Part shown: piece after piece, positions 1,520 to 63,642 of the stretch
Numbering within the stretch: the stretch's first letter is position 1
How the letters are laid out: each line of letters opens with the position of its first letter
Origin: Candidatus Nomurabacteria bacterium
GTDB taxonomy: Bacteria; Patescibacteriota; Saccharimonadia; Saccharimonadales; Saccharimonadaceae
Length of the DNA: 64,000 nt
NCBI GenBank assembly: GCA_031257295.1
Contig: JAIROX010000006.1
Span: 15,392-79,391 of the forward strand
Direction of reading: 5' to 3'
Notes under the pieces: generated by a model
Databases searched by the model: none
Told to the model about the DNA's origin: nothing
Seen by the model: only the letters and a program-made list of their open reading frames with translations
Translations under genes and position numbers: made by a program

Positions 1520-1550
1520 TTGCGTTATACCCTCGGGGGGGGGGTATAAT
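1520..1550 (+). promoter_or_regulatory. Sigma70-type promoter whose spacer contains a G10 homopolymer
   Basis: TTGCGT (1520-1525), then a 19-nt spacer whose last 10 nt are G (1535-1544), then TATAAT (1545-1550). It lies 33 nt upstream of the ATG at 1584. Confidence 0.6.
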
Positions 1551-1583
1551 AACCACATAAAAGTAAGATAGGTGTGTATAAGC

Positions 1584-4500
1584 ATGAAATATTACAAAAT
1601 ACTAACAGGAATCGTACTGGCCTTAGTTATTACTAGTGCAGCGGCAACTTTGTTTATTAACAAACAAAGCGCTCAAGCGGCGGTGAGCTTGACGGCGAGC
1701 AACGAAGCGGAGCTAAAGGCGGCTTTCGCGAACGCCGACACGAATATTGATATTACGATCACGGCGGATTTTGAGCTCTCGACAGCGACGACGGAGGGGA
1801 ATCGCACCGTCAAAAACGGCAAAAACATCACGATTCATTCCGACGGCACGCTGCGGACGATCAAGCGCAGCGCCAGCTACGCTGGCCGGATGATTTTGGT
1901 CCAAAACGGCACGTTGACGTTGAAAGATATCACGATTGATGGCAACAAAGCCGGCACGAGCGGCCTAGCGGACGTCAATACGATGATTTTGGTGGGCAAG
2001 AGCGGTAGCATCGCCGACAAAGGCACGCTGAATATCGAACCTGGCGCCACGCTGCAAAATAACACCGCCACCGCCGGCGATTCATCCAAATCGGCCGGAG
2101 CGGTGGTGGTGCGCGAAGCCAGCACGGTTAATATGTCTGGCGGGCTGATCACCGGCAACACCGGCGCGGACAGAGACACCGGCGGGGCGTTCCTGTTTAG
2201 TGATGGCGATCCAGGGATGTCAACGCCCGGTATGGAGATGACATTTAATATGACCGGCGGCGAGATCAGCGGCAACACGATACGAACCAAAGGCGGTGGC
2301 GGAGTGTATTTCCAAGATAAAGGTAGCGCCAATGGCAGCAATATTACCATCACTGGCAGCGCTAAAATCATCAACAACATTGCCACAAACAGCGGCATAA
2401 GCAACGGCGCTGGCGGCGTGGGCGGCGGCCTGTTTTTTAGTGGCAACAACAAAATGAACATCGAAATCGGCGGTAGCGCCGAAATCAGCGGCAACACTGC
2501 CGGTAGTAACGGCGGCGGCCTAGCCATCAACTCGCAAAGCAACAACGGCATCAACCTGACCGTCAAAGACAACGCCAAATTCACTGGCAACACATCAAAC
2601 GACGGCAAAGGCGGCGGCATTTATGCCGAAAATGTTGACGTGCGGATCCAGGACAATGTGGAAATCACCGACAACACCTCAACTGGCGGCGGCGGAATTA
2701 ACTTGTCGGGCAGCCAGCGCGGCTTTGTCGAAATCGAAGGCCCGGTCAAAATTAACGGCAACAAAGTCAATATCGAAAACCCCGGCAGCAACAACTACGG
2801 TGGCGGCGGTGTCAAACTGAGCGGCAGTAACCAACACATATCCATCGAAAACGGCGCGCAGATCAACAACAACGACGTCTACGCCGACAACGATTGGTCG
2901 GGCAAAGGCGGCGGCGTCTATGTCAGCAGCTGTAACGACATGTATATGTACGATAGCCAGGTTAATGGCAATATTACAGGCAATAATAGCACTAACTATT
3001 GGTATCACGGCGCCAACGGTGGTGGTATTTACTTCTATGGCGATTATTGCAACAGCAGTTCAACGCCAAATGATGCGCGGACATTGGAAATTCACAACAG
3101 TCAAATCAACAACAACACTTCCGGCGGCCAGGGCGGCGGCATCTACACCCGCGTGGCGAACCTGACTTTTGACAATTCGCAAATGAACGGCAACAAAGCT
3201 CGCGACAACGGCGGTGGGATTGAACTACACAACTGGGCTTGGGGCAGCAGCTACAATATGCCATCGGTCAATTTCACGGGCGATTTCCAGATTAACAACA
3301 ACATCGCCGACCTTGACGAAGACGGCGTGGGTGACGGCGGCGGGATTTTTGTGAACGGTTGGAGCGGCAGCTCTAATTTCGCCATCAACCTATCTAGCGG
3401 CCAGATCAACGGCAACAAAGCGGTCGGCGGCGGCGGGATCCATTTTGTGGTTAGTGGCCAGAATAATCATATTTCTACGCTGACGCTGGGCGGCAATGTC
3501 CAGGTGAACAACAACACGGCTTATACACCGGAAGGTATGACGAATTGGAGCGACGCCCAGGGTGGCGCGATCGAGCTGAGCTCTAATAGCGGCTGGTCGC
3601 TGCATATTACCGACAATGCCCAGCTGACCGGCAACACGGCTGGTTGGAACGGCGGCGCGATACATATTGGTGGCCTTTATAACTCGTCGCTGCTGATTGA
3701 CGGCAACCCCAATATTTCCGGCAACAAGACGCTGGGGACGGGCTGTGGTTCGAGCGGTTATGGTTGTTATGGCACCACAGGCGGCGGCGCGATTTTTATT
3801 GGCGGCATGGGCGGGACGGCCAGTGCTGATATTGGCGGCAATGTCAAGATTGATAATAATCAGGCGGTCAATGGGTTTGGCGGCGCGATACGGGTTTTGA
3901 ATTCGCCGGATGGGCTATATATTAACGATAATGCCGAGATTTGTGGTAACTCGGCGGCCTATGGCGGGGCAATTTCGGAGCATTCTGGGTCGGTGGTGTA
4001 TATTTCTGGCGATGTGAAACTTTGCGACAATGTGGCGGACGTTAATGGTGGCGCGATTAACTTGAACTTTGATAGCAATTCGAGTGTATATATGCAAGAC
4101 CATGTTGAAATTGTGGATAATACAGCCGGCGCGGATGGCGGCGGGATTTGGACGGAATATCCGGGGCTGCGCGGGGCGTATATTTCTGGGCCTGGGCAAG
4201 ACCACACGGTGGTGGATGTGGTGGATAATAAGTTGACGAATGTTTATGTGGAGAGCGGCGTGAAGTTTTGGGATAACACGGCACAGGCGGGGTATATCAT
4301 GACTGACTCGGCGGATATCGCAACGCACGGCGCGCAGATTGGCTTGGTGCAGTATTCTTGGGATTTCCCGTATGCGTATAATAATTATGATATTTCGTAC
4401 TTGAGCAGCGATATTAAGCATGTGGCGCGGGTGAAGTTTGATGTGAATGGCGCGTCGTCGCCGACGCCAGCCACGCAATACTATTGGCGGGAAAATCGGT

Positions 4501-4829
4501 CGCTGGCAGTCGAGCCGTCTGTTCCTGTGCGGGCCGGGTATAAGTTCCTCGGCTGGCAGGGCGCGGTAACTACTTGCAATGGCTGGAATGCGGTTTTGGA
4601 CGAAGGCACAGCTTGTACTACCACTGTAGAAATGTGGGATTTTACCTCCGCGCGGGCGTATGCTGATGTTAAATTGACGGCGTTGTGGGAGGAAATCACG
4701 CCTGACGCGCCAAATACTGGGCTAGAGCAGCAAGCCGCAAACGCTTCTGCTAGCACGCCAGCAGCCGTCGGATTACTATTTGCACTTATACTAATTAGGC
4801 GGCATCTACTTAGTAAAAGACGCGCTTAA
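1584..4829 (+). CDS. giant secreted beta-helix repeat surface protein (Pmp-like Gly-rich repeats, Listeria-Bacteroides repeat, sortase-like PNTG sorting signal)
   Basis: N-terminal signal or anchor MKYYKILTGIVLALVITSAAATLFINKQSAQA. More than 20 degenerate repeats of the type N-x-[AT]-x(3-6)-GGG-[IVA], as in polymorphic-membrane-protein or parallel beta-helix adhesins. The C-terminus carries VKFDVNG...AGYKFLGWQG...VKLTALWEE, then PNTG (4710-4721), a hydrophobic helix and an RRHLLSKRRA tail. The ORF track starts at GTG 1572; ATG 1584 gives the canonical signal-peptide start. Confidence 0.85.
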   Translation: MKYYKILTGIVLALVITSAAATLFINKQSAQAAVSLTASNEAELKAAFANADTNIDITITADFELSTATTEGNRTVKNGKNITIHSDGTLRTIKRSASYAGRMILVQNGTLTLKDITIDGNKAGTSGLADVNTMILVGKSGSIADKGTLNIEPGATLQNNTATAGDSSKSAGAVVVREASTVNMSGGLITGNTGADRDTGGAFLFSDGDPGMSTPGMEMTFNMTGGEISGNTIRTKGGGGVYFQDKGSANGSNITITGSAKIINNIATNSGISNGAGGVGGGLFFSGNNKMNIEIGGSAEISGNTAGSNGGGLAINSQSNNGINLTVKDNAKFTGNTSNDGKGGGIYAENVDVRIQDNVEITDNTSTGGGGINLSGSQRGFVEIEGPVKINGNKVNIENPGSNNYGGGGVKLSGSNQHISIENGAQINNNDVYADNDWSGKGGGVYVSSCNDMYMYDSQVNGNITGNNSTNYWYHGANGGGIYFYGDYCNSSSTPNDARTLEIHNSQINNNTSGGQGGGIYTRVANLTFDNSQMNGNKARDNGGGIELHNWAWGSSYNMPSVNFTGDFQINNNIADLDEDGVGDGGGIFVNGWSGSSNFAINLSSGQINGNKAVGGGGIHFVVSGQNNHISTLTLGGNVQVNNNTAYTPEGMTNWSDAQGGAIELSSNSGWSLHITDNAQLTGNTAGWNGGAIHIGGLYNSSLLIDGNPNISGNKTLGTGCGSSGYGCYGTTGGGAIFIGGMGGTASADIGGNVKIDNNQAVNGFGGAIRVLNSPDGLYINDNAEICGNSAAYGGAISEHSGSVVYISGDVKLCDNVADVNGGAINLNFDSNSSVYMQDHVEIVDNTAGADGGGIWTEYPGLRGAYISGPGQDHTVVDVVDNKLTNVYVESGVKFWDNTAQAGYIMTDSADIATHGAQIGLVQYSWDFPYAYNNYDISYLSSDIKHVARVKFDVNGASSPTPATQYYWRENRSLAVEPSVPVRAGYKFLGWQGAVTTCNGWNAVLDEGTACTTTVEMWDFTSARAYADVKLTALWEEITPDAPNTGLEQQAANASASTPAAVGLLFALILIRRHLLSKRRA

Positions 4830-4852: not shown

Positions 4853-5254
4853 ATGATTAGACACACTATTCTTAGAGCGCGGCGAGCACGCAAGATTGAT
4901 GCTGAATATAAAGTGTTTAGACATAAGCATCGCAACTGCACGTTTTGCACAATCAGCACTGGCGACGACAACGAGATCGTAAGCGAAACTAAGCATTTTT
5001 ATATCATTAAAAATCGTTTCCCGTACGAGGTCCTGGACGGTAGCAAAGTAACCGATCACCTGTTAGTTGTGCCCAAAGACCACTTTTTAGAGCTGCGAGA
5101 CATGACACCCAGCGAGCGCAAAACACTAGTAGAAGTTTTAGCTAAATATGAAAAAAAAGGTTATTCATTCTTTGGCCGGTCGCAAGCTGATACTGGCAGG
5201 TCTATGATACATCAGCATACACATCTGATAAAAACTGAAGACAAGAGTAAGTAA
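4853..5254 (+). CDS. HIT (histidine triad) family protein
   Basis: C-terminal histidine triad HQHTHLI; 133 aa. TGcTAGAAT extended -10 at 4838-4846 lies 6 nt upstream of the ATG with no SD, so the mRNA is probably leaderless. Confidence 0.8.
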   Translation: MIRHTILRARRARKIDAEYKVFRHKHRNCTFCTISTGDDNEIVSETKHFYIIKNRFPYEVLDGSKVTDHLLVVPKDHFLELRDMTPSERKTLVEVLAKYEKKGYSFFGRSQADTGRSMIHQHTHLIKTEDKSK

Positions 5255-26366: not shown

Positions 26367-28190
26367 ATGCAAATCACAACCGATAAGATTCGCAACATTG
26401 CGATAATTGCTCACGTTGACCACGGCAAAACCACCATGGTAGATGGCCTGCTGAAGCAAAGCCACACTTTTCGCGACAACCAAGCCGAGATGAGTGAAAA
26501 GCTCATCATGGACAGCGGCGACCAAGAACGCGAGCGCGGCATCACCATAACTGCTAAGCAAACTACGATTTATCACGACGACCACAAAATTAATATTATT
26601 GACACGCCAGGCCACGCCGATTTTTCGGGCGAGGTAGAACGCACGCTCAACATGGCCGACGGTGTGATGCTGATTGTCGACGCCGCCGAGGGCCCCATGC
26701 CGCAGACCAAGTTTGTGCTTAGTAAAGCCCTCGAGCTAGGGCTAAAACCCATTGTAGTTATCAACAAAATCGACAAACCAGCTCGCCGAATCGAAGAAGT
26801 AAAAGGCGAAATTGAAGACTTATTCTTAGAACTTGCCACCAGCGACGACCAGCTGCACTACCCGATCTACTACGCCATTGGTCGCGAAGAAAAGGCTTGG
26901 GCCGAGTTGCCCGACAACCCCGAACAACACGCCGACTTGTCCGTGATTTTTGACGCTATCATCAACCAAATCCCCGCGCCAGAAGCCAAGGCCGGCGGCC
27001 TGCAAATGCTGGTTACCAGCCTGCAATACGATTCGTTCGTGGGCAAATACGCCATCGGCAAAGTTAGCCGCGGCAAAATCGCTCGCTCCGCGCCTATCAA
27101 ATTAGTGCAAACTTCGGGCGAGGCGATTAGCGCAAAAGTTGACAAACTTTTTGTGTTCCGTGGGCTAGTTAAAGAAGAAATCGACGAGGCAGTTTGCGGC
27201 GACATTGTGGCTGTAACTGGTGTAGGCGAGGCGCACATTGGTGAAACCATTGCCGACTTTGACAACCCCGAAGCCCTGCCAGTTATGAAACTTGAACAAC
27301 CTACGCTCAGTATGTACTTAGGGCCAAACACCAGCCCATTTAAGGGGCGCGAAGGTGACTACACCACCAGCCGGCAAATTGGCGACCGCTTGCAGCGCGA
27401 GCTCGAAACCAACGTAGCCCTGCATGTCGAAGATAACGGAATCGGCTTTAAGATTAGCGGCCGCGGCGAGCTGCACCTGTCGGTTCTAATCGAAACCATG
27501 CGCCGCGAAGGCTACGAGTTCGAAGTTGGCCGGCCCGAGGTTGTAACGATCCAAAAAGACGGCAAGACTATGGAGCCGGTCGAAGATTGCATCATAGAAG
27601 TTGGCCAAGAGTTTGTGGGCGCGGTTAGCCAAGCCTTGGGTGTGCGGCGCGGCGTGCTAAAAAACCAAGAAGCCACCAGCCAGGGCGCAGCGCGCATGGA
27701 GTACAAGATTCCAACTCGCGGGCTGATTGGCCTGCGCAACCAGCTACTTACCGCTACCAAAGGCACCGTTATTATTAATTCTTTACCCGCCGGCTACGAG
27801 CCAATGGGGACCGCAATGCCTAAAAATCGCAATGGCGCACTGGTAGCGTTCGAGCCTGGCGCAACCACTACTTACGCACTAGCTAACGCCGAAGCCCGCG
27901 GTGAACTATTTGTCGGCCCGGCGGTCGAAGTTTACGCCGGCATGGTGATTGGCCAAAACAACCGCCAAGAAGATCTAGAGGTGAACGTTTGCAAAGGCAA
28001 ACATCTCACCAACATGCGCGCCAGCGGCAGCGACGGTGCTGTACAGCTCACGCCGTACACAGAACTCAGCCTAGAGCAGTGCATAGATTTTATAGCCAAC
28101 GACGAGCTGCTTGAAGTTACGCCCAAAAACTTGCGTCTCAGAAAGCGCATTCTGGACCCGACTTTACGTAAACGAGCCAACAAAACATAG
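26367..28190 (+). CDS. typA: translational GTPase TypA/BipA
   Basis: G1 [10 protein letters not shown]3 DTPGHADF, G4 NKID. The 607-aa length and EF-G-like domain order are those of TypA. Confidence 0.95.
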
Positions 28191-42811: not shown

Positions 42812-44542
42812 CTAGTCCTCAGTTAGCTCCATGTAAGCCACCTTACCAACCTTAGTCTTGGGCAAAGTTTTGCGAAACTCGATCGAGCGCGGCCACTTAT
42901 ACTTGGCTAGGTTTTGCCGACAATGTTCCATAATCTCTTCTTTAATTTTGTCGCTTGGCTTAGTGCGCCCCTTCAGCACCACAAAAGCCTTAGCCACCTG
43001 TCCGCGATATTTATCGTCAACGCCAACCACAGTAGACAGCAGCACTGAGGGCACTTTGGCTATAACATCTTCAACTTCATTTGGATAAATATTGTAGCCG
43101 CTAGAAATAATCATACGCTTCAAGCGTTGCGCAAAAAACACGTAGCCGTCTTTGTCCATATAGCCGATATCACCAGTATGTAGCCAAATTCGACCATCGG
43201 GGTGCACCTGTAGAGCTTCGTTAGTCTCAACCTCATTATTCACATAACCCTTCATAACACTCGGCGCCGAGATCACAATTTCGCCAATCTCACCAGTTTT
43301 ACGCTCAATATAGGTATCCGGCTCAACAATTTTAAAGAACGCATCCGGCACGGGCAGGCCAATTGAACCATCACGGTTCGATTCAGCCAGGTTCACACAG
43401 GTGACCGACAGGCATTCAGTCAGCCCATAACCCTGCAAAATAAACGCCTCCGAACCGTTCTTGGCCAGCAGGTTATTAACCTCTTTCATAAGCGTCGGCG
43501 CCATACTGTCACCGCCCGAAATAGTAACTTTCAAGAACGACAAGTCTAGCTTACGAATCTTTTTGTCCTTAATCATCGCTTCGAACAAAGTCGGCACGCC
43601 AACCACCAGATTTGGCTTAGTATTAGACAGAATACTATGAAATCGCTTGGCGTCAAACTTGGGGAGCATAATCGTACCACCCCCCCCACAAAAGATTGTA
43701 TGAATACCAACTCCTAGCCCAAAACCATGGAAAATCGGCATGATACCAAGCAGATTATAGCCTGGGCGCACTACTTCCGGAAAAGCTTCACGGCACTGCA
43801 CGGCCGTAGCGTTAAAAGCGTAGTTGCTAAGCGCAATACCTTTGCTTTTGCCAGTTGTGCCACCACTATACATAATCGCCGCCACGTCACTCGCGGTCAT
43901 TTTTTCGTAAGCACTGCCAACCACATATTGCCCGCGGCTCAGCAGCTCGGCCCAGTTCATCGTGTGTTTTTCTTTGGTCAAAATCTGCATCAGGTTTTTC
44001 TGGACCTCTTTAAGGTTGAAGAAATTATTAAAAAACCTGTAGCCCATCTTCGATAGCATCGGCAACGAGTCGGCAGGGGAGAGGATGATAGCACGCTCAA
44101 CTGCGGTGTCTTTTAGAATCGGCTTAACGTTTGGCCAGGCAACGTCGATGACCACCAAGATGCGGCTACCCACTAGGTTCAAGCATTCTTTAATTTCGTT
44201 GGGTGCGCTAAGCGGGTGAAAAATATTAGCTACCGCGCCAATTTTGTTAATGGCATAGATAGCCGTGATAGCCTCTGGTATGTTAGCTGAACAGATTGAA
44301 ATAGCATCGCCCTTCTTGACGCCCAAGCTAATAAAACCATGCGCCGCGCGGTCGACCTCTGCCATAAAAGTTGCATAATTTACTTTGTTACCAAAGTAGT
44401 TGTAAATCATGGCGTCGGGATACTTTTCGGCAGTTTTCAGCACTTCGTCGTACATCGAGCCCTTGGGGTACTTCAATGTCTTTTTACGCTTCTTACCGTA
44501 CTGTTTTAGCCACGGAGCGGCCACTTTTTTTGCACTCATCAC
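42812..44542 (-). CDS. long-chain fatty acid--CoA ligase (AMP-binding superfamily)
   Basis: AMP-binding motif MYSGGTTGKSKG, plus GYGLTE and TGDIGYMDKDGY. The C-terminal lysine region is present. A G8 run in the sense strand (43680-43687) encodes CGGGG. Confidence 0.9.
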   Translation of the reverse strand: MMSAKKVAAPWLKQYGKKRKKTLKYPKGSMYDEVLKTAEKYPDAMIYNYFGNKVNYATFMAEVDRAAHGFISLGVKKGDAISICSANIPEAITAIYAINKIGAVANIFHPLSAPNEIKECLNLVGSRILVVIDVAWPNVKPILKDTAVERAIILSPADSLPMLSKMGYRFFNNFFNLKEVQKNLMQILTKEKHTMNWAELLSRGQYVVGSAYEKMTASDVAAIMYSGGTTGKSKGIALSNYAFNATAVQCREAFPEVVRPGYNLLGIMPIFHGFGLGVGIHTIFCGGGGTIMLPKFDAKRFHSILSNTKPNLVVGVPTLFEAMIKDKKIRKLDLSFLKVTISGGDSMAPTLMKEVNNLLAKNGSEAFILQGYGLTECLSVTCVNLAESNRDGSIGLPVPDAFFKIVEPDTYIERKTGEIGEIVISAPSVMKGYVNNEVETNEALQVHPDGRIWLHTGDIGYMDKDGYVFFAQRLKRMIISSGYNIYPNEVEDVIAKVPSVLLSTVVGVDDKYRGQVAKAFVVLKGRTKPSDKIKEEIMEHCRQNLAKYKWPRSIEFRKTLPKTKVGKVAYMELTED

Positions 44543-45843
44543 CTACCGTCCCTCTCTTGGTATTGCTCATATATCCGTTGCCGATAAATACGTTCACCAC
44601 TATCGATCATCATCTTTTCAATAGTATCATATAGTTGCTGATTAGCCTTTTCTAGGCTGTCGTTTGAACCAATAGCCATAGGCGGAGCAAAGACGATCTT
44701 TGGGCCTTTCCTGAACGGCCGATATTCACCTATTATGGCAGCTGGCACTAATTTAGCGCCGGTTTTCTGTGCAAACCTCACGGCGCCAAACTTAAAAGGA
44801 ATTAGCAGTTGGTCGGTTTTATTACGTGTGCCTTCGGGGAAAATACCTAGAACCTGGCCTTTGTTTAGGATATCTACAACAACCTGTTTCATGGCCGACT
44901 TATCTTTGGCCTGGCGGTCGACGAACACTACACCAAAGCGGCTCATCGGCCAGCCAACCAGCTGCTTGGCGTATTCAATCTTAGCCATAAAATACATACG
45001 CCTTAGCGGCCGCCCCAGCATAATAGGGAACTGGTCGTGAACATGTTTGTGGTTAGTAGCAATCACCAATGCACCACGTTTCGGAATGTTCTCGCGACCA
45101 ACAACCTCAACTCTATAGACTAGCTGGAACACCGCTAGCACCAACGGCTTTAATAGCACCTGTAGCCACACGTGAGGCTTTTGCACCGCTCGGCTATCTG
45201 TCATTTGTTGAATAGTGCTGCGTAGTTGCTGGTTAGCTTTCTCAAGATCCTTGCCGACCACCATAGGCTCGCTGTATTCAATACTAAACTTGCCAAAAAA
45301 CGGGATCGGCCTACCAGTGATAGCCACCGGCACAACCTTCACCTTAGCGCGCTGCGCCATAGCCACAGCACCAAACTTAAACGGCAAAAGCTCCTTATTT
45401 TTGTTGGTGTGCCCCTCGGGCGCAATCGCCACAGCACCGCCACCTTTGAGCACTCTAACAGCGCCGTCCAGAGCACCAGAATTTTTACGTGCCCTGTCAA
45501 CTGGTATCAAGCCAGCGCCACCCAGCAGCCACCCGAGCGGCGGCTGGCACAAGTCAGCTTTTGCCATAAAAAACAGCATGCGGGGCAGTGTGCCCTGCAC
45601 TAACATAAAATCGAAGTCTGATATGTGGTTAAACGCAAACACCACACCACCGCGCTTCGGGATGTTGTGGCGGCCTTTGACCCGTGGCCAAAACAGCAGC
45701 CACAAGATAGGGAACAACACGACAACAGCCAGCCAATAAACCAGGCCATGTCGCGGCCTTACTTTAACCCTGCTTTCTTCATTTAGCACCGGCAAACCTG
45801 TTTTAGGGTTCAGGTTAACAGGACGCACCTTTTTATTCATCAT
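44539..45843 (-). CDS. tandem-domain lysophospholipid acyltransferase (two PlsC/LPLAT domains in one polypeptide)
   Basis: Two HX4D motifs (NHISDFD and NHKHVHD), each followed by an EG motif (APEGH and FPEGTR). TGgTAGAAT is at 45856-45848 on the minus strand. ATG codons at 45843 and 45840 lie 4 and 7 nt downstream of it. Confidence 0.85.
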   Translation of the reverse strand: MMNKKVRPVNLNPKTGLPVLNEESRVKVRPRHGLVYWLAVVVLFPILWLLFWPRVKGRHNIPKRGGVVFAFNHISDFDFMLVQGTLPRMLFFMAKADLCQPPLGWLLGGAGLIPVDRARKNSGALDGAVRVLKGGGAVAIAPEGHTNKNKELLPFKFGAVAMAQRAKVKVVPVAITGRPIPFFGKFSIEYSEPMVVGKDLEKANQQLRSTIQQMTDSRAVQKPHVWLQVLLKPLVLAVFQLVYRVEVVGRENIPKRGALVIATNHKHVHDQFPIMLGRPLRRMYFMAKIEYAKQLVGWPMSRFGVVFVDRQAKDKSAMKQVVVDILNKGQVLGIFPEGTRNKTDQLLIPFKFGAVRFAQKTGAKLVPAAIIGEYRPFRKGPKIVFAPPMAIGSNDSLEKANQQLYDTIEKMMIDSGERIYRQRIYEQYQERDGR

Positions 45844-54034: not shown

Positions 54035-54523
54035 CTACTTTGCCTTAATCTGTCGATAAGAAAACTTAGCACCCGGGCGCCACTTGCCACGCGCGTCTTC
54101 GTCGTAAACCTTAACCACGCCAGTCTCTACTGCCGCTACTTGCACCAAAGCCGGGGTGTAGTCAACCAGAGTTTTGTAAAATATCAGATCCTCACTGCCA
54201 ACATGCTTTCGACCCGGGAAAACTTCAAGAAACTTCTTAGTAGCTTCGCGTTCAAAATAATCTGGCTTACCCTTAGGTGGAAAAAACTCAGCCGGCTTAA
54301 CCCCCATATGTGACAATATCTTTTTAACATCCGCTAGCTGCAGCTTAGTTTTAGACTCAATGTAGACAAATGGCTTTTGCTCCTTGTTGATAAACAGCGT
54401 AGCCACAGCCGAGCCGCCAACTGGCGCTGCGCGAAGTAGCATCTTGGCAACTTCATACCGCATACCAAAATGCGCTAGCAGCTGTCGTTCTAAGTCAATA
54501 TCGCAAACGATATCATCTATCAT
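54035..54523 (-). CDS. hypothetical protein
   Basis: 162 aa with no recognised motif. TGtTAAAAT (54538-54530, minus strand) lies 6 nt upstream of the ATG at 54523. Confidence 0.6.
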   Translation of the reverse strand: MIDDIVCDIDLERQLLAHFGMRYEVAKMLLRAAPVGGSAVATLFINKEQKPFVYIESKTKLQLADVKKILSHMGVKPAEFFPPKGKPDYFEREATKKFLEVFPGRKHVGSEDLIFYKTLVDYTPALVQVAAVETGVVKVYDEDARGKWRPGAKFSYRQIKAK

Positions 54524-59560: not shown

Positions 59561-60395
59561 ACTAACCCGCCGGTTATATAACCAAAACGAGATTTCGATC
59601 TGTTATTTCACCACAAAAGTGTACAAAAATCGGCCAAGCCTGGTAATGGTGCACGGCTTTCGCGGCGACCACCGCGGCATGCTTAAGATAGCCGCCGAAC
59701 TGGGTGACAGCTATAACTTATTCATCCCAGACTTACCGGGTTTTGGTGCCAGCCAACCATTCACCAGCCATCGCCACGACGTGCAAGCTTACGCTAACTT
59801 TTTACACGACTTTATCAAAAAGCTAGAACTCAAAAAGCCCAACATTCTAGCGCACTCATTCGGCACCACTATCGCCAGTGCTTTTGCCACCGAACATCCC
59901 GAAGCCATCAATAAACTGGTGCTACTTAGCCCAATCGCCGCCAACCCAGTGCCCAAAGCCTTGAACTTTTTGACCCAGCCCGCCATGAGCCTGCTACACG
60001 CCCTGCCCGAAAAGCTCGGCCGCGCCCTTACCGCCACCAACCTAGTTACCGACATCATGAGCCTGAGCACCACCAAAACTAAAGACAAGCAGCTACGTCG
60101 CTGGATCAAAGTCGAGCACCGTCGCTATTTCAACAGCTTCGCCACGCACCGTTCAATGATGGAAGCCATGCAGGCCAGCAGCTCCCACCACGTGGCTATG
60201 TATGCTAAGCAGGTCACCACCCCAACACTTATCATAGCGGGAGATAAAGACGGCGTCGGCAAATTCAAACACCAAAAAAACCTGGCCAAGCTATCCACTA
60301 GCGCCCAACTAAAGGTCATCAGCGGAGTAGGGCACCTAACGCACTACGAAACACCAAAAGAAGTCGCTGCAGCGACCAAAGAATTCCTAGATTAG
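59541..60395 (+). CDS. alpha/beta hydrolase
   Basis: HGFRGD oxyanion region, nucleophile elbow AHSFGT and a C-terminal GVGH. ATG 59541 is preferred over the track's TTG at 59505; the start is uncertain. Confidence 0.8.
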   Translation: MASSTPKLTRRLYNQNEISICYFTTKVYKNRPSLVMVHGFRGDHRGMLKIAAELGDSYNLFIPDLPGFGASQPFTSHRHDVQAYANFLHDFIKKLELKKPNILAHSFGTTIASAFATEHPEAINKLVLLSPIAANPVPKALNFLTQPAMSLLHALPEKLGRALTATNLVTDIMSLSTTKTKDKQLRRWIKVEHRRYFNSFATHRSMMEAMQASSSHHVAMYAKQVTTPTLIIAGDKDGVGKFKHQKNLAKLSTSAQLKVISGVGHLTHYETPKEVAAATKEFLD

Positions 60396-61657
60396 TAGCG
60401 CGGCTTATAGTTCTTGATAGCTTTTTTGTAGATCTCTTCAAACCTCTTCAGCGTATAGTCTATGTCGTGCGTTTTGGCGATTTTTAGGCTTTCAGCTGCA
60501 AACTTATCACGCAGCTTGCCGTCAATTAAGATCTTTTCTAAGCCCACTGCAACTTGGTCGACATTGTCTTTTTCGCACAGGAATCCATTGCGACCATCTT
60601 GGCAAAGCTCTTTAACCGCTCCAGCATCCACCGCCACCACTGGCTGGCCGCTAGCCATAGCCTCAAGCGTAGCGATGCTCTGCAGCTCAACAGGGGACGG
60701 CATGCAATAAACCTGGCCAATGCGCAGCAGCTCAAGCTTATCTTTGTCCGACACACGGCCGGTTAGCGTAACATGTTTTGCTACGCCTAACTCTTCGGCC
60801 AGCTCCTGCAAGTTCGCTTCATCCGTGCCAGCGCCAACAATCAACAGGTGAGCGCCTGTGCCTCTTTGAATCCGCGCAAAAGCCTCCACTAGCACTGAAA
60901 TATGCTTTTCAGCATCAACTCGGCCCAAGTAGGTGACAATCGGTTGGTCTGCCGACAAGCCAAACTTTTTGTACACACTAGCCGGCACCTTACCAGGTGA
61001 ATAGCGCGACAAGTCAATACCATTGCTAACAGCTTCAACTGGCATGGGCAGATACTTTAGATCCTCTTTAGTGAAAAACATGTCAATAGCCACCTGAGTA
61101 GGCATAGTTACATAGTCGGCCTTGTCGACCACGCGCGAAAACCAGCGAATCGCTCGGCTGATCGGCCTGCTGAGCGGCGCGAACATCTTCAGGTTATCCA
61201 CCAAGTTTTCTGGCAACACGTGGTTGGTTTCAACAAACGGGATACCCGTGCGATTAGCGTAGCGTAAAGCTTCTTGACCGATCATGATTGGGTTATGGTT
61301 GTGAATCACATCAGGCTCGAAATCGTTCAACGCCTGGCGAATTTCACGCCGCGGCGTTAGACAAATCCTAAAGCCATTCTTGGGGTAAATTGGCACATTT
61401 GGCATGTTCACACCCGCCAGTTCCCGTGGCTCGCGGATATCGTCAATTTGATTGTGGTAAAACGGAAACACCACCGACTTAAGCCGCACAATGTTGGTTT
61501 TACCGTCTTTTTCAATATAATGCACGCCAGTTTGACTCGGTGCCAGCACCAGCACCTTATGGCCACGCTCGGCTAGGCCCAGCGCAAGTTCATGGCTCGC
61601 CGTAGATACGCCATTAACTGTTGGCCAGTAGAGGTCAGATGAAATAGCTATTTTCAT
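60392..61657 (-). CDS. GT4-family (GT-B) glycosyltransferase
   Basis: N-terminal MKIAISSDLYWPTVNGVS. The C-terminal half has the E-x7-E-like region SPVELQSIATLEAMASGQPVVAV. TGtTATAAT (61672-61664, minus strand) lies 6 nt upstream of the ATG. Confidence 0.88.
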   Translation of the reverse strand: MKIAISSDLYWPTVNGVSTASHELALGLAERGHKVLVLAPSQTGVHYIEKDGKTNIVRLKSVVFPFYHNQIDDIREPRELAGVNMPNVPIYPKNGFRICLTPRREIRQALNDFEPDVIHNHNPIMIGQEALRYANRTGIPFVETNHVLPENLVDNLKMFAPLSRPISRAIRWFSRVVDKADYVTMPTQVAIDMFFTKEDLKYLPMPVEAVSNGIDLSRYSPGKVPASVYKKFGLSADQPIVTYLGRVDAEKHISVLVEAFARIQRGTGAHLLIVGAGTDEANLQELAEELGVAKHVTLTGRVSDKDKLELLRIGQVYCMPSPVELQSIATLEAMASGQPVVAVDAGAVKELCQDGRNGFLCEKDNVDQVAVGLEKILIDGKLRDKFAAESLKIAKTHDIDYTLKRFEEIYKKAIKNYKPRY

Positions 61658-61756
61658 GTTATCATTATAACATGACGAGCTCGAGTGAAATGAGAACTGG
61701 TTCTCATTTCTGAGGCGAGGAAGTGTTACATTAAAGCGTAGTTTTATTATACTATA

Positions 61757-61801: not shown

Positions 61802-62449
61802 TTAAAGCTGATTTACACTAAATACGCCACTTGTGTCCACGTCCACACTCTTAGGATCGCCTTTATAGTGAATACTGCCCGCTCCTGAGGCGTCACCTGA
61901 CAAAGCTTCTGTCACCCAGATTTTCGCGTTTGCCGAACCAGAAAAGTTCACGATGACATTCTTGACCTGATATTTTTGGGCGTCAATGCTACACGAGCCC
62001 GAGGCCGCCAGCTTCAGCTCCAACGCGCTGCCCTCGTCAAACGTCACATTTGCAGCACCACTTATGTCAAGAGAAGATATTTCGGGCATGGTAATGTCGA
62101 CTACTAGCTTTGTCGACATGATAGGTTTGAAATTTGTGTCGATAAAACTAATGCTCAGCACACTGTCGGACACCTCGACTTTGATGTGCTTTTGGAGGTT
62201 GCCGTCGGTTGTCACCGAGACGCCATTGCTTTTCCCAAAATGGATATTCGCCGTATAGTCCCCACTCAGCTCAATCGCGCTAAATACCTCAACCTTTCGC
62301 TCTTGAGTCACCACCTTGCCGTCACCGCGGATACTGCCGAAGGCGAAGAAATAGGCAGCTCCTAGCGCAAGGCACAGGGCAACAATGCCACCAATAATCC
62401 CCGCTTTACTTAATTTTCCTAATTTGCGTTTTTGTACTTTTTCATTCAT
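61802..62449 (-). CDS. membrane-anchored GIN-domain (DUF2807) putative adhesin
   Basis: N-terminal TM anchor, then repetitive beta-strand units (ISGAANVTF, ASGSCSID, FSGSANAKIW, ASGAGSIHYKGDP) typical of head-domain (GIN) beta-helix proteins. Confidence 0.8.
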   Translation of the reverse strand: MNEKVQKRKLGKLSKAGIIGGIVALCLALGAAYFFAFGSIRGDGKVVTQERKVEVFSAIELSGDYTANIHFGKSNGVSVTTDGNLQKHIKVEVSDSVLSISFIDTNFKPIMSTKLVVDITMPEISSLDISGAANVTFDEGSALELKLAASGSCSIDAQKYQVKNVIVNFSGSANAKIWVTEALSGDASGAGSIHYKGDPKSVDVDTSGVFSVNQL

Positions 62450-62497
62450 CGTGACATGACCCCTCTGCTTTACTTTTTGTTATTAACGTACACAGGT

Positions 62498-62527
62498 ATT
62501 TTACCCCCCCCCGGTTGGAGAATGCAA
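62498..62527 (-). promoter_or_regulatory. Sigma70-type promoter whose spacer contains a G9 homopolymer (minus strand)
   Basis: On the minus strand: TTGCAT (62527-62522), an 18-nt spacer whose last 9 nt are G (C9 on the plus strand, 62504-62512), then TAAAAT (62503-62498). This is the same layout as the promoter at 1520-1550. Confidence 0.6.
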
Positions 62528-62556
62528 GCTACCTTATTATCTGATATACTGGCACC

Positions 62557-63642
62557 ATGCGATTGTTTTTTGACGCCAGATTTATCCGCACCGACCGACA
62601 TGACGGTATTAGCCGGTACTCTTTTGAGCTGGCGCAGCGGGTGAGCGACCATCATGATGATGTGACTTATATTATCCATGGTGAAAAGCAGCGTAACTTT
62701 TTACCCAGTGGCGCTAAAACTATCATTCTTAATAACCCCGAATCAGTGCGCGAAGCTTGGTCGGGACGGGCACTGGCCAAGCATCAGCCAGATGTGGTGT
62801 TTTCGCCCATGCAAACTTTGCGAGGCCACAGGTCGTACAAGCTAGTTCTAACCCTGCACGACACCATTTACTATCGCCACAAAACCCCACCGGCCAACCA
62901 TCCAGCCTGGGTGCGCCTGGGGTGGCGGTTATTTCACGCCACGCCACTACCACAACGAATGGCACTAAATTCTGCCGACCACGTAGTGACAGTTAGCCAT
63001 AAGAGTAAGCATGAGATTGAAGATATGCGGCTAACCAAGCGGCCGGTTAGTGTAGCCTACAATGCGCCGGGCGACCTGTCACGGTACCTCAACGACCCCG
63101 TAGCCACCACTAGCGTGGACAACCTAGTTTACATGGGTTCGTTCGTGCCCTATAAAAACGTTGAGACCTTAGTGCGTGCAATGAGGTACTTGCCCGGCAA
63201 AACTTTGCACCTACTTAGCAAAATCACCCCTGAGCAGAGGAAAAACATTGAACAACTTTTTGATACAACCTATGGAAAAGTCATATTTCATGGCGGTGTC
63301 AGCGACCAAAAATATGCCGAGCTTTTGGCCAACAACGCCGCGCTAGTTTCGGCCAGTAAAGATGAGGGCTTCGGCCTACCACTAGTGGAAGCTATGAGCC
63401 TGGGCGTGCCAGTAGTAGCTAGTGACGAGCCGGCTCACCGCGAAGTAGCAGGTGATGCCGCCTTGTATTTTAAAACCACCAGCGCCCGCGACCTAGCCGA
63501 TAAAGTCAAGCAGATCGAGGACGATAAACTACGCGCCGAACTGATCAAAAAAGGCAAAAAACAAGCCGCTAAGTTTAACTGGGATGACAGCGCCAAAACC
63601 ATAGTTAAGATAGCCAAGGAGTTGCATCGTGGCAAAGAATAA
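62557..63642 (+). CDS. GT4-family glycosyltransferase
   Basis: N-terminal MRLFFDARFIRTDRHDGISRYS and C-terminal EGFGLPLVEAMSLGVPVVAS. TGaTATACT (62542-62550) lies 6 nt upstream of the ATG. Confidence 0.9.
   Translation: MRLFFDARFIRTDRHDGISRYSFELAQRVSDHHDDVTYIIHGEKQRNFLPSGAKTIILNNPESVREAWSGRALAKHQPDVVFSPMQTLRGHRSYKLVLTLHDTIYYRHKTPPANHPAWVRLGWRLFHATPLPQRMALNSADHVVTVSHKSKHEIEDMRLTKRPVSVAYNAPGDLSRYLNDPVATTSVDNLVYMGSFVPYKNVETLVRAMRYLPGKTLHLLSKITPEQRKNIEQLFDTTYGKVIFHGGVSDQKYAELLANNAALVSASKDEGFGLPLVEAMSLGVPVVASDEPAHREVAGDAALYFKTTSARDLADKVKQIEDDKLRAELIKKGKKQAAKFNWDDSAKTIVKIAKELHRGKE

Follow-up and report, generated by a model that had tools for sequence, protein, structure and literature searches.

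A poly-G tract in the spacer of a candidate phase-variable promoter preceding a GIN-domain protein gene in a Patescibacteria/CPR genome

A 30-bp element upstream of a GIN-domain (DUF2807) gene in an uncultivated Patescibacteria MAG places a run of nine guanines directly against a -10 hexamer, such that the run would form half of the -35/-10 spacer of a sigma-70-type promoter. We regard this element, from the features of its sequence and their recurrence elsewhere, as probably a slipped-strand, spacer-length contingency (phase-variable) promoter. A sister element precedes a large, repeat-rich surface protein gene in the same window (the whole 64-kb stretch of DNA that was analysed), and the poly-G promoter arrangement is clearly more than chance. 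The organism is represented by one MAG, entered at NCBI as Candidatus Nomurabacteria bacterium (protein MDR0591569.1, locus tags LBG75_), and one Logan contig of the same run. Homologues of the neighbouring family 4 glycosyltransferase (GT4) gene indicate Saccharibacteria-like relatives as much as the NCBI lineage (Patescibacteria group / Parcubacteria group), and the taxonomic label is taken here no further than "Patescibacteria/CPR".

On the minus strand, within the interval 62300-62800, the region reads agc-TTGCAT-tctccaacc-GGGGGGGGG-TAAAAT-acctgtgtacgttaataacaaaaagtaaagca-GAGGGG-tcatgtcacg-ATG, and it comprises the following features.

62522-62527, minus strand: -35-like hexamer TTGCAT of the GIN promoter (from the sequence and a pattern count in the window)
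62513-62521, minus strand: non-G half of the GIN spacer, tctccaacc, 9 nt (9 nt at the sister locus too)
62504-62512, minus strand: G9 homopolymer adjoining the -10 hexamer and presumed to be slippage-prone, which brings the spacer to 18 nt (sequence, run counts)
62498-62503, minus strand: -10 hexamer TAAAAT of the GIN promoter (several leaderless genes in the window have the same hexamer as their -10 box)
62460-62465, minus strand: Shine-Dalgarno-like GAGGGG, with the ATG 10 nt further on (sequence)

A sequence-only reading had given the coordinates of TTGCAT, G9 and TAAAAT, the 18-nt spacer and the GIN ATG at 62449, all of which proved exact when the sequence was read again. Its 48-nt leader spans the whole interval between the -10 box and the ATG; with a start of transcription about 7 nt past the -10 box, the leader proper would measure some 41-42 nt. 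At nine nucleotides, the tract (62512-62504) has the length of an SSR (a homopolymer of at least about 8 nt). Its putative position in a promoter is given by the sequence TTGCAT-18-TAAAAT, in which the -35 hexamer agrees with the consensus TTGACA at only three of six positions, the two having TTG in common. For this reason the GIN site went uncalled in a consensus sigma-70 promoter scan, as did the sister site, whose 19-nt spacer exceeds the range scanned. TTGCAT and TAAAAT are likely the hexamers in use, an inference supported by their recurrence and not by a consensus score.

The sister locus, which that reading had given for comparison as TTGCGT-N9-G10-TATAAT at 1520-1550, was confirmed on the sequence. 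No divergent gene is present at this promoter.

1520-1550, plus strand: sister promoter TTGCGT-tataccctc-G10 (1535-1544)-TATAAT, with a 19-nt spacer (sequence)
1584-4829, plus strand: gene for a 1081-aa, repeat-rich, Pmp-like surface protein behind the sister promoter (signal peptide, GGxI/GGAI repeats)

Long G/C runs are rare in this DNA. At 48.5% G+C, the window contains 126 G/C runs of length 4, ten of length 5 and none of 6-7, and then three of at least 8, one each of 8, 9 and 10; an order-3 Markov simulation yields a mean of 0.11 runs of at least 8, with three or more in 0 of 100 simulations. Only about 6.6% of the window is intergenic, yet two of the three long runs occur there, and both adjoin a -10 hexamer and stand 9 nt downstream of TTGCRT. 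The pattern TTGCRT-N9-G7+-TAWAAT finds two matches in the window and none in 100 dinucleotide-preserving shuffles, and the common architecture claimed for the two loci can be taken as real and non-random. The possibility that a G run is a general promoter element of the organism was rejected, since only 2 of the approximately 29 upstream regions inspected carry one. The third long run is a G8 at 43680-43687, on the coding strand of the minus-strand gene 42812-44542, which encodes a 576-aa AMP-dependent ligase. There the context TGT GGG GGG GGT GGT (CGGGG) holds the sole GGG-GGG codon pair among the 143 Gly-Gly pairs of the window, in which GGG accounts for 10.9% of Gly codons. Gain or loss of one G would truncate the product at residue 296 or 322, and this run may be an intragenic, frameshift-type contingency tract.

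The spacers of the two poly-G promoters were viewed against those of their neighbours by inspecting every upstream region of at least 35 nt in the window. Where the -35 box is clear, the promoter takes the form TTGACN-17-TATAAT (genes at 26367, 45920 and 10926), and the -10 box is usually TAAAAT or TATAAT. The spacers of the GIN and Pmp-like genes, at 18 and 19 nt, are thus 1 and 2 nt beyond the norm of 17, and since a G8 tract would bring both to that norm, G8 is the expected optimum in both. Many other genes of the window have TATAAT, TAAAAT, TAGAAT or TACAAT 6-8 nt before the ATG and no Shine-Dalgarno sequence (examples are 25664, 26367, 44539-45843 on the minus strand, 54035-54523 on the minus strand, 54593, 58347, 60392-61657 on the minus strand, and 62557), a pattern which argues that leaderless mRNAs are widespread in the organism. 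The poly-G promoters differ from these neighbours in providing a leader with a Shine-Dalgarno sequence.

In the mechanism we propose, replication slippage within the G run would add or remove single bases, and the spacer would shift with the tract, from 17 nt at G8 to 18 at G9 and 19 at G10. Such a change would raise or lower expression of the GIN protein, reversibly and in a stochastic fraction of cells, and the Pmp-like surface protein (1520-4829, promoter included) would be wired likewise. Both a high rate of tract-length change in the organism and a dependence of expression on tract length are presumed here from the sequence.

The gene behind the element, and the region that follows it, have these features.

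61802-62449, minus strand: GIN gene, 215 aa, with an N-terminal transmembrane helix and a DUF2807/GIN beta-helix domain (Pfam, AlphaFold, Foldseek)
61687-61710, minus strand: stable 10-bp hairpin GAAAUGAGAAC...UUCUCAUUUC, about 95 nt past the GIN stop codon (151-nt fold, z = -3.3)

The product matches Pfam PF10988 (DUF2807, "head GIN domain") with an E-value of 2.7e-28 and a score of 99.4 bits, where the cutoff is 24.2. In an AlphaFold model based on 15 homologues (pLDDT 88.9), an N-terminal helix at about residues 3-36, which would be a hydrophobic anchor, is followed by an all-beta domain, whose Foldseek matches are PDB 4ygu (TM-score 0.81 relative to the length of the target), 3pet and 3jx8. 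A score above the gathering threshold and a beta-helix fold together assign the product to the DUF2807 family, and the succession of helix and all-beta domain predicts a membrane-anchored, extracytoplasmic beta-helix protein. The sequence-only reading had named a "GIN-domain adhesin-like gene"; the GIN domain stands, whereas "adhesin" is only a label, given as "putative adhesin" to all three of these structural-genomics entries. The hairpin lies between the GIN gene and the leaderless promoter of the downstream GT4 gene, and is a possible terminator, though one lacking a U-tail.

The protein at the sister locus has a body of GGGI/GGAI-type repeats like those of chlamydial Pmp proteins and has homologues with PF02415; searched against Pfam, it reached the threshold of no family apart from a weak Flg_new match. 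Its C-terminus (...APNTG, a hydrophobic stretch, then RRHLLSKRRA) resembles a sortase (LPXTG-like) cell-wall sorting signal. Predictions therefore agree with the earlier suggestion that both loci lie before envelope-exposed proteins, the one having a transmembrane helix and a beta-helix, the other a signal peptide and GGxI repeats. The nature of the GIN product, the accessory status of its gene and the location of the sister promoter before a 1081-aa repeat surface protein together identify the element with envelope determinants.

The accessory status of the GIN gene emerges from a comparison of relatives in which the GT4 gene served as anchor, at identities of 71-81%. In three contigs at 74% and 81% identity (L084, L085 and L087), two GT4 genes directly face each other, each with its own leaderless promoter, and neither a GIN gene nor a poly-G tract is present; in L084 the two GT4 genes are 58 bp apart. 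Absence of the GIN gene and its promoter from the 74-81% relatives implies that they are a lineage-specific insertion between two divergent GT4 genes. In the 71% relative (L086), this slot is occupied by an unrelated gene, whose membrane-anchored product matches no Pfam family; the gene is preceded on the minus strand by TTGACA-aat-G17-tgc-TATACT, with a 23-nt spacer, and then by a GGGAGG Shine-Dalgarno sequence and a GTG start. The GIN gene here and an unrelated protein behind G17 there argue that the slot repeatedly hosts an accessory envelope gene behind poly-G. On the L086 contig the tract is a C17 at 3490-3506, with a G8 nearby at 3564-3571, and alternatively it could open an ORF (ATG-G16, encoding MGGGGG).

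The sequence-only reading had proposed a search of other genomes for the motif, together with a tabulation of downstream genes. This pattern was scanned over one genome per species from 185,579 species, a set that does not include the window's own genome, and 78 loci match the layout, preferentially before pilins, S-layer proteins and repeat surface proteins. An estimate from uniform composition predicts about 100 loci, and because the number observed is close to this, the argument rests on position, orientation and clustering rather than on the count. About a quarter of the loci (18) carry a Patescibacteria label, among them eight from Saccharibacteria and three from Nomurabacteria, with others from Parcubacteria, Paceibacterota, Taylor-, Nealson- and Kaiserbacteria; two further MAGs have a CPR-type promoter cassette in common, and gut Firmicutes are also represented among the genomes with the layout. 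By a rough estimate from GTDB composition, only 1-2% of all bases in a collection of this kind would come from Patescibacteria, so the excess would be more than 10-fold.

Most matches are located directly upstream of a same-strand ORF with a Shine-Dalgarno sequence. A hydrophobic N-terminus is found in 17 of the 33 ORFs downstream of a pure tract of at least nine Gs; among 450 background ORFs taken from these loci the figure is 24.7% (odds ratio 3.2, p = 0.0013). The downstream products recognised by Pfam include prepilins (two from Parcubacteria, one from Planctomycetota), an S-layer protein with SLH, surface proteins of the Listeria-Bacteroides-repeat and Ig-like types, and DUF1573. In one "Nomurabacteria" MAG, TTGCAT-N9-G9-TATAAT (L047) precedes the gene for an 880-aa protein homologous to the Pmp-like protein of the window (E 1e-22), and a second such promoter (L008) precedes a 1009-aa Ig-domain protein. 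Three genomes have two matches each, whereas about 0.02 same-genome pairs would be expected of 79 matches placed at random (calculated). The notion that such pairs are duplicated cassettes was rejected both for the two window promoters and for those of MAG Pc512_bin123, since in each case alignment gives motif-level similarity amid unrelated flanks. The suggestion of a family of contingency promoters rather than a one-off thus gains comparative support, through recurrence in Patescibacteria and gut Firmicutes and clustering within genomes.

A direct trace of single-base slippage is afforded by a Bacilli MAG (MGBC109233), in which two paralogous promoters (L038 and L053) agree at every position over at least 50 nt apart from a tract of G9 in one and G10 in the other; a difference confined to the tract is what a change of 1 nt in this layout would leave. 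In a Lachnospiraceae MAG (L063), tandem promoters at 4012-4042 and 5004-5035, with G10 and G11, lie upstream of two similar secreted low-complexity proteins. Matches before surface genes have spacers of 16-21 nt, a range which is imposed by the search pattern itself and which would be expected if ON and OFF states had both been captured.

The same comparisons bear on the alternative that survives best, namely that the element is an ordinary fixed promoter whose spacer includes a G run by happenstance, any occasional slippage being unselected and of no biological role. We consider this unlikely. It gains from the L041/L073 orthologous pair, in which the tract is G9 in one and G8 in the other and substitutions have kept the spacer at 17 nt, so that this pair looks like an ordinary fixed promoter. 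It gains also from a cassette, TTGCATTTATTTTnA-G7-9-TAAAAT-gg.atgAGTCGGaaAttt...ATG, which is conserved in several Patescibacteria (Taylorbacteria, Saccharibacteria and other MAGs) at the following sites, and partly in L076.

L005, 4626: CPR cassette
L006, 4794: CPR cassette
L064, 5232-5261, minus strand: CPR cassette
L068, 2307: CPR cassette
L075, 6274-6301, minus strand: CPR cassette

The ORFs behind this cassette encode small hydrophilic proteins of 87-175 aa, not surface proteins, with no detectable mutual homology; four of the five were scanned against Pfam and matched no family.

Nor is the tract conserved together with the genes that it precedes. Orthologues of the Pmp-like gene at 49-51% identity have ordinary promoters of the form TTGTCA-17-TATAAT or TGATATAAT, with no poly-G, from which it follows that the poly-G trait is not conserved with this gene. 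For the GIN protein, a search of 5.8 billion clusters returned no homologue above 33% identity, and distant homologues from other phyla (32-33% identity) have upstream regions with no poly-G, which are uninformative. Taken together, the approximately 50% orthologues of the sister gene and the distant GIN homologues suggest a trait that is young or unstable, and poly-G promoters would appear to be gained and lost quickly. A fixed tract is likewise compatible with the finding of G9 in both assemblies of the organism, the MAG and the Logan contig (L001, SRR14710896). Look-ups of the exact proteins returned these two contigs alone. The Logan contig is the work of an independent assembler but probably of the same reads, and since both contigs come from one run their agreement is no independent evidence. 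JGI metagenome contigs, scanned with a merged pattern for both loci and with a locus-specific one in which the flanks could be 0-30 nt apart, gave 0 matches in either case, which indicates that the organism is absent from that collection.

Against a fixed promoter of this kind, a window devoid of G/C runs of 6-7 nonetheless has runs of 9 and 10 equally placed in the promoters of two envelope genes; instances of the layout cluster within genomes and are overrepresented before surface and pilin genes; and spacers of 18 and 19 nt, where 17 is the norm, are as captured non-optimal phase states would look. We accordingly retain the contingency promoter as the preferred reading of the GIN element.

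It is more doubtful still that the GIN promoter lies elsewhere, for example at GATAAT (62541-62536, minus strand), with G9 belonging to the 5' UTR, or serving the divergent GT4 gene as an insulator or upstream element, and acting by RNA or DNA structure or by protein binding, not by spacer length. The features of that gene are as follows.

62542-62550, plus strand: extended -10 element of GT4, TGATATACT, 6 nt before the ATG and of the leaderless type (sequence)
62557-63642, plus strand: 361-aa family 4 glycosyltransferase (GT4) gene, divergent from the GIN gene (ORF list, Pfam, homologues)

Such a placement is favoured by the weakness of TTGCAT (3/6, and uncalled by the scan), and by the small size of the region between the two genes, only 107 bp, which also accommodates the GT4 promoter; TTGCAT, read on the opposite strand, falls at the -35 position of that promoter. 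The GT4 -10 box (62545-62550, with TG upstream) puts this -35 position at 62522-62527, the same 6 bp being read as ATGCAA on the plus strand. However, a -35 element for GATAAT would land within the GT4 coding sequence; the sister locus has the identical TTGCRT-N9-Gn-TAWAAT layout with no divergent gene; GT4 relatives retain the TGATATAAT leaderless promoter with no poly-G; and the same hexamers recur at the same spacing in dozens of independent loci, directly before a Shine-Dalgarno sequence and an ATG. Both GT4 genes that flank the GIN gene have promoters of the leaderless type.

These relationships also qualify an earlier suggestion that tract length could influence both genes. The extended -10 is present at 62542-62550 and the tract is indeed upstream of it, but any influence would be indirect, since the tract is upstream of the GT4 -35 position, outside the core promoter, and its length cannot alter the GT4 spacer. 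A dependence of GT4 on the tract is further made unlikely by the operation of its extended -10 leaderless promoter in relatives that have no poly-G. The sole plausible coupling, and a speculative one, would be that the two promoters, placed back to back, compete for RNA polymerase at the common -35 position.

That the tract or its length is an artefact of assembly or sequencing (two-colour-chemistry poly-G, or homopolymer miscalling) is extremely improbable, for while short-read assemblies are at their least reliable in the lengths of homopolymers and the G17 of L086 is suspiciously long, the tract lies inside a 160-kb contig and has unique sequence on either side, G9 was obtained by two assemblers, and an artefact would not put itself between a -35 and a -10 element twice.

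The proposed contingency promoter resembles several established switches. In the vlp genes of Mycoplasma hyorhinis (a poly-A spacer) and the fim genes of Bordetella pertussis (a poly-C spacer), a homopolymer sets the on or off state of surface lipoproteins or fimbriae in bacteria that have small genomes or live with a host; these systems differ from the GIN promoter in nucleotide and lineage, and fim in addition needs BvgA. TA repeats in the divergent intergenic region of Haemophilus influenzae hifA and hifB lie in the spacers of both of two overlapping promoters. The GIN/GT4 region differs from this arrangement in that its tract is in the GIN spacer only, upstream of the GT4 -35 position.

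Closer in construction is porA of Neisseria meningitidis, a surface-protein gene in which, as in the GIN promoter, a G tract forms part of the -35/-10 spacer; there 11G gives high expression, 10G about 2-fold lower and 9G about 13-fold lower (PMC3639595). The GIN promoter differs from it in that the tract adjoins the -10 and a 9-nt non-G half is fixed. Moreover, porA belongs to a proteobacterial pathogen in which switching and immune escape have been shown experimentally, whereas the present case is the sequence of a MAG from uncultivated Patescibacteria. In Treponema pallidum, expression from tp0126 is optimal at 17-nt spacing, tprL is on with 8 G and near background with 10 G, and tracts of 7-11 G occur in vivo (PMC7864442). 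The parallel extends to the presence of several poly-G promoters of envelope genes (tp0126 and tprE/G/J/L) in one small, reduced genome; variation and reporter activity have been measured in T. pallidum, while the present promoters are known from sequence. Some of the T. pallidum tpr tracts are not strictly in the spacer and cooperate with a CRP-like regulator. By analogy with such systems, G8 would be the high state, the assembled G9 an intermediate one and the G10 of the sister promoter a low one.

In the searchable literature on phase variation, contingency loci and homopolymers in Saccharibacteria, Patescibacteria and CPR, no description of homopolymer promoter switches was found. The mechanism itself is textbook, and the value would lie in its extension to a new lineage, not in a new principle. 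We suggest, tentatively and as a conjecture somewhat against the odds, that poly-G spacer promoters constitute a contingency system, widespread in Patescibacteria/CPR and not described to date, by which pilins and large surface repeat proteins are switched stochastically. Were this so, the host-attachment and phage-exposed structures of ultra-small, host-dependent cells would be turned on and off, and the organism of the window would have at least two such switches, with a possible third, intragenic one in the AMP-dependent ligase gene. The idea would be directly testable by counting tract lengths in existing metagenomic reads, an advantage in organisms that live attached to other microbes and are hard to manipulate. 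Interest in these elements comes mainly from this hint of contingency control over attachment structures in Patescibacteria: if pilins and surface beta-helix proteins do stand behind slippage-prone promoters, this would explain heterogeneity within populations in attachment and in susceptibility to phage.
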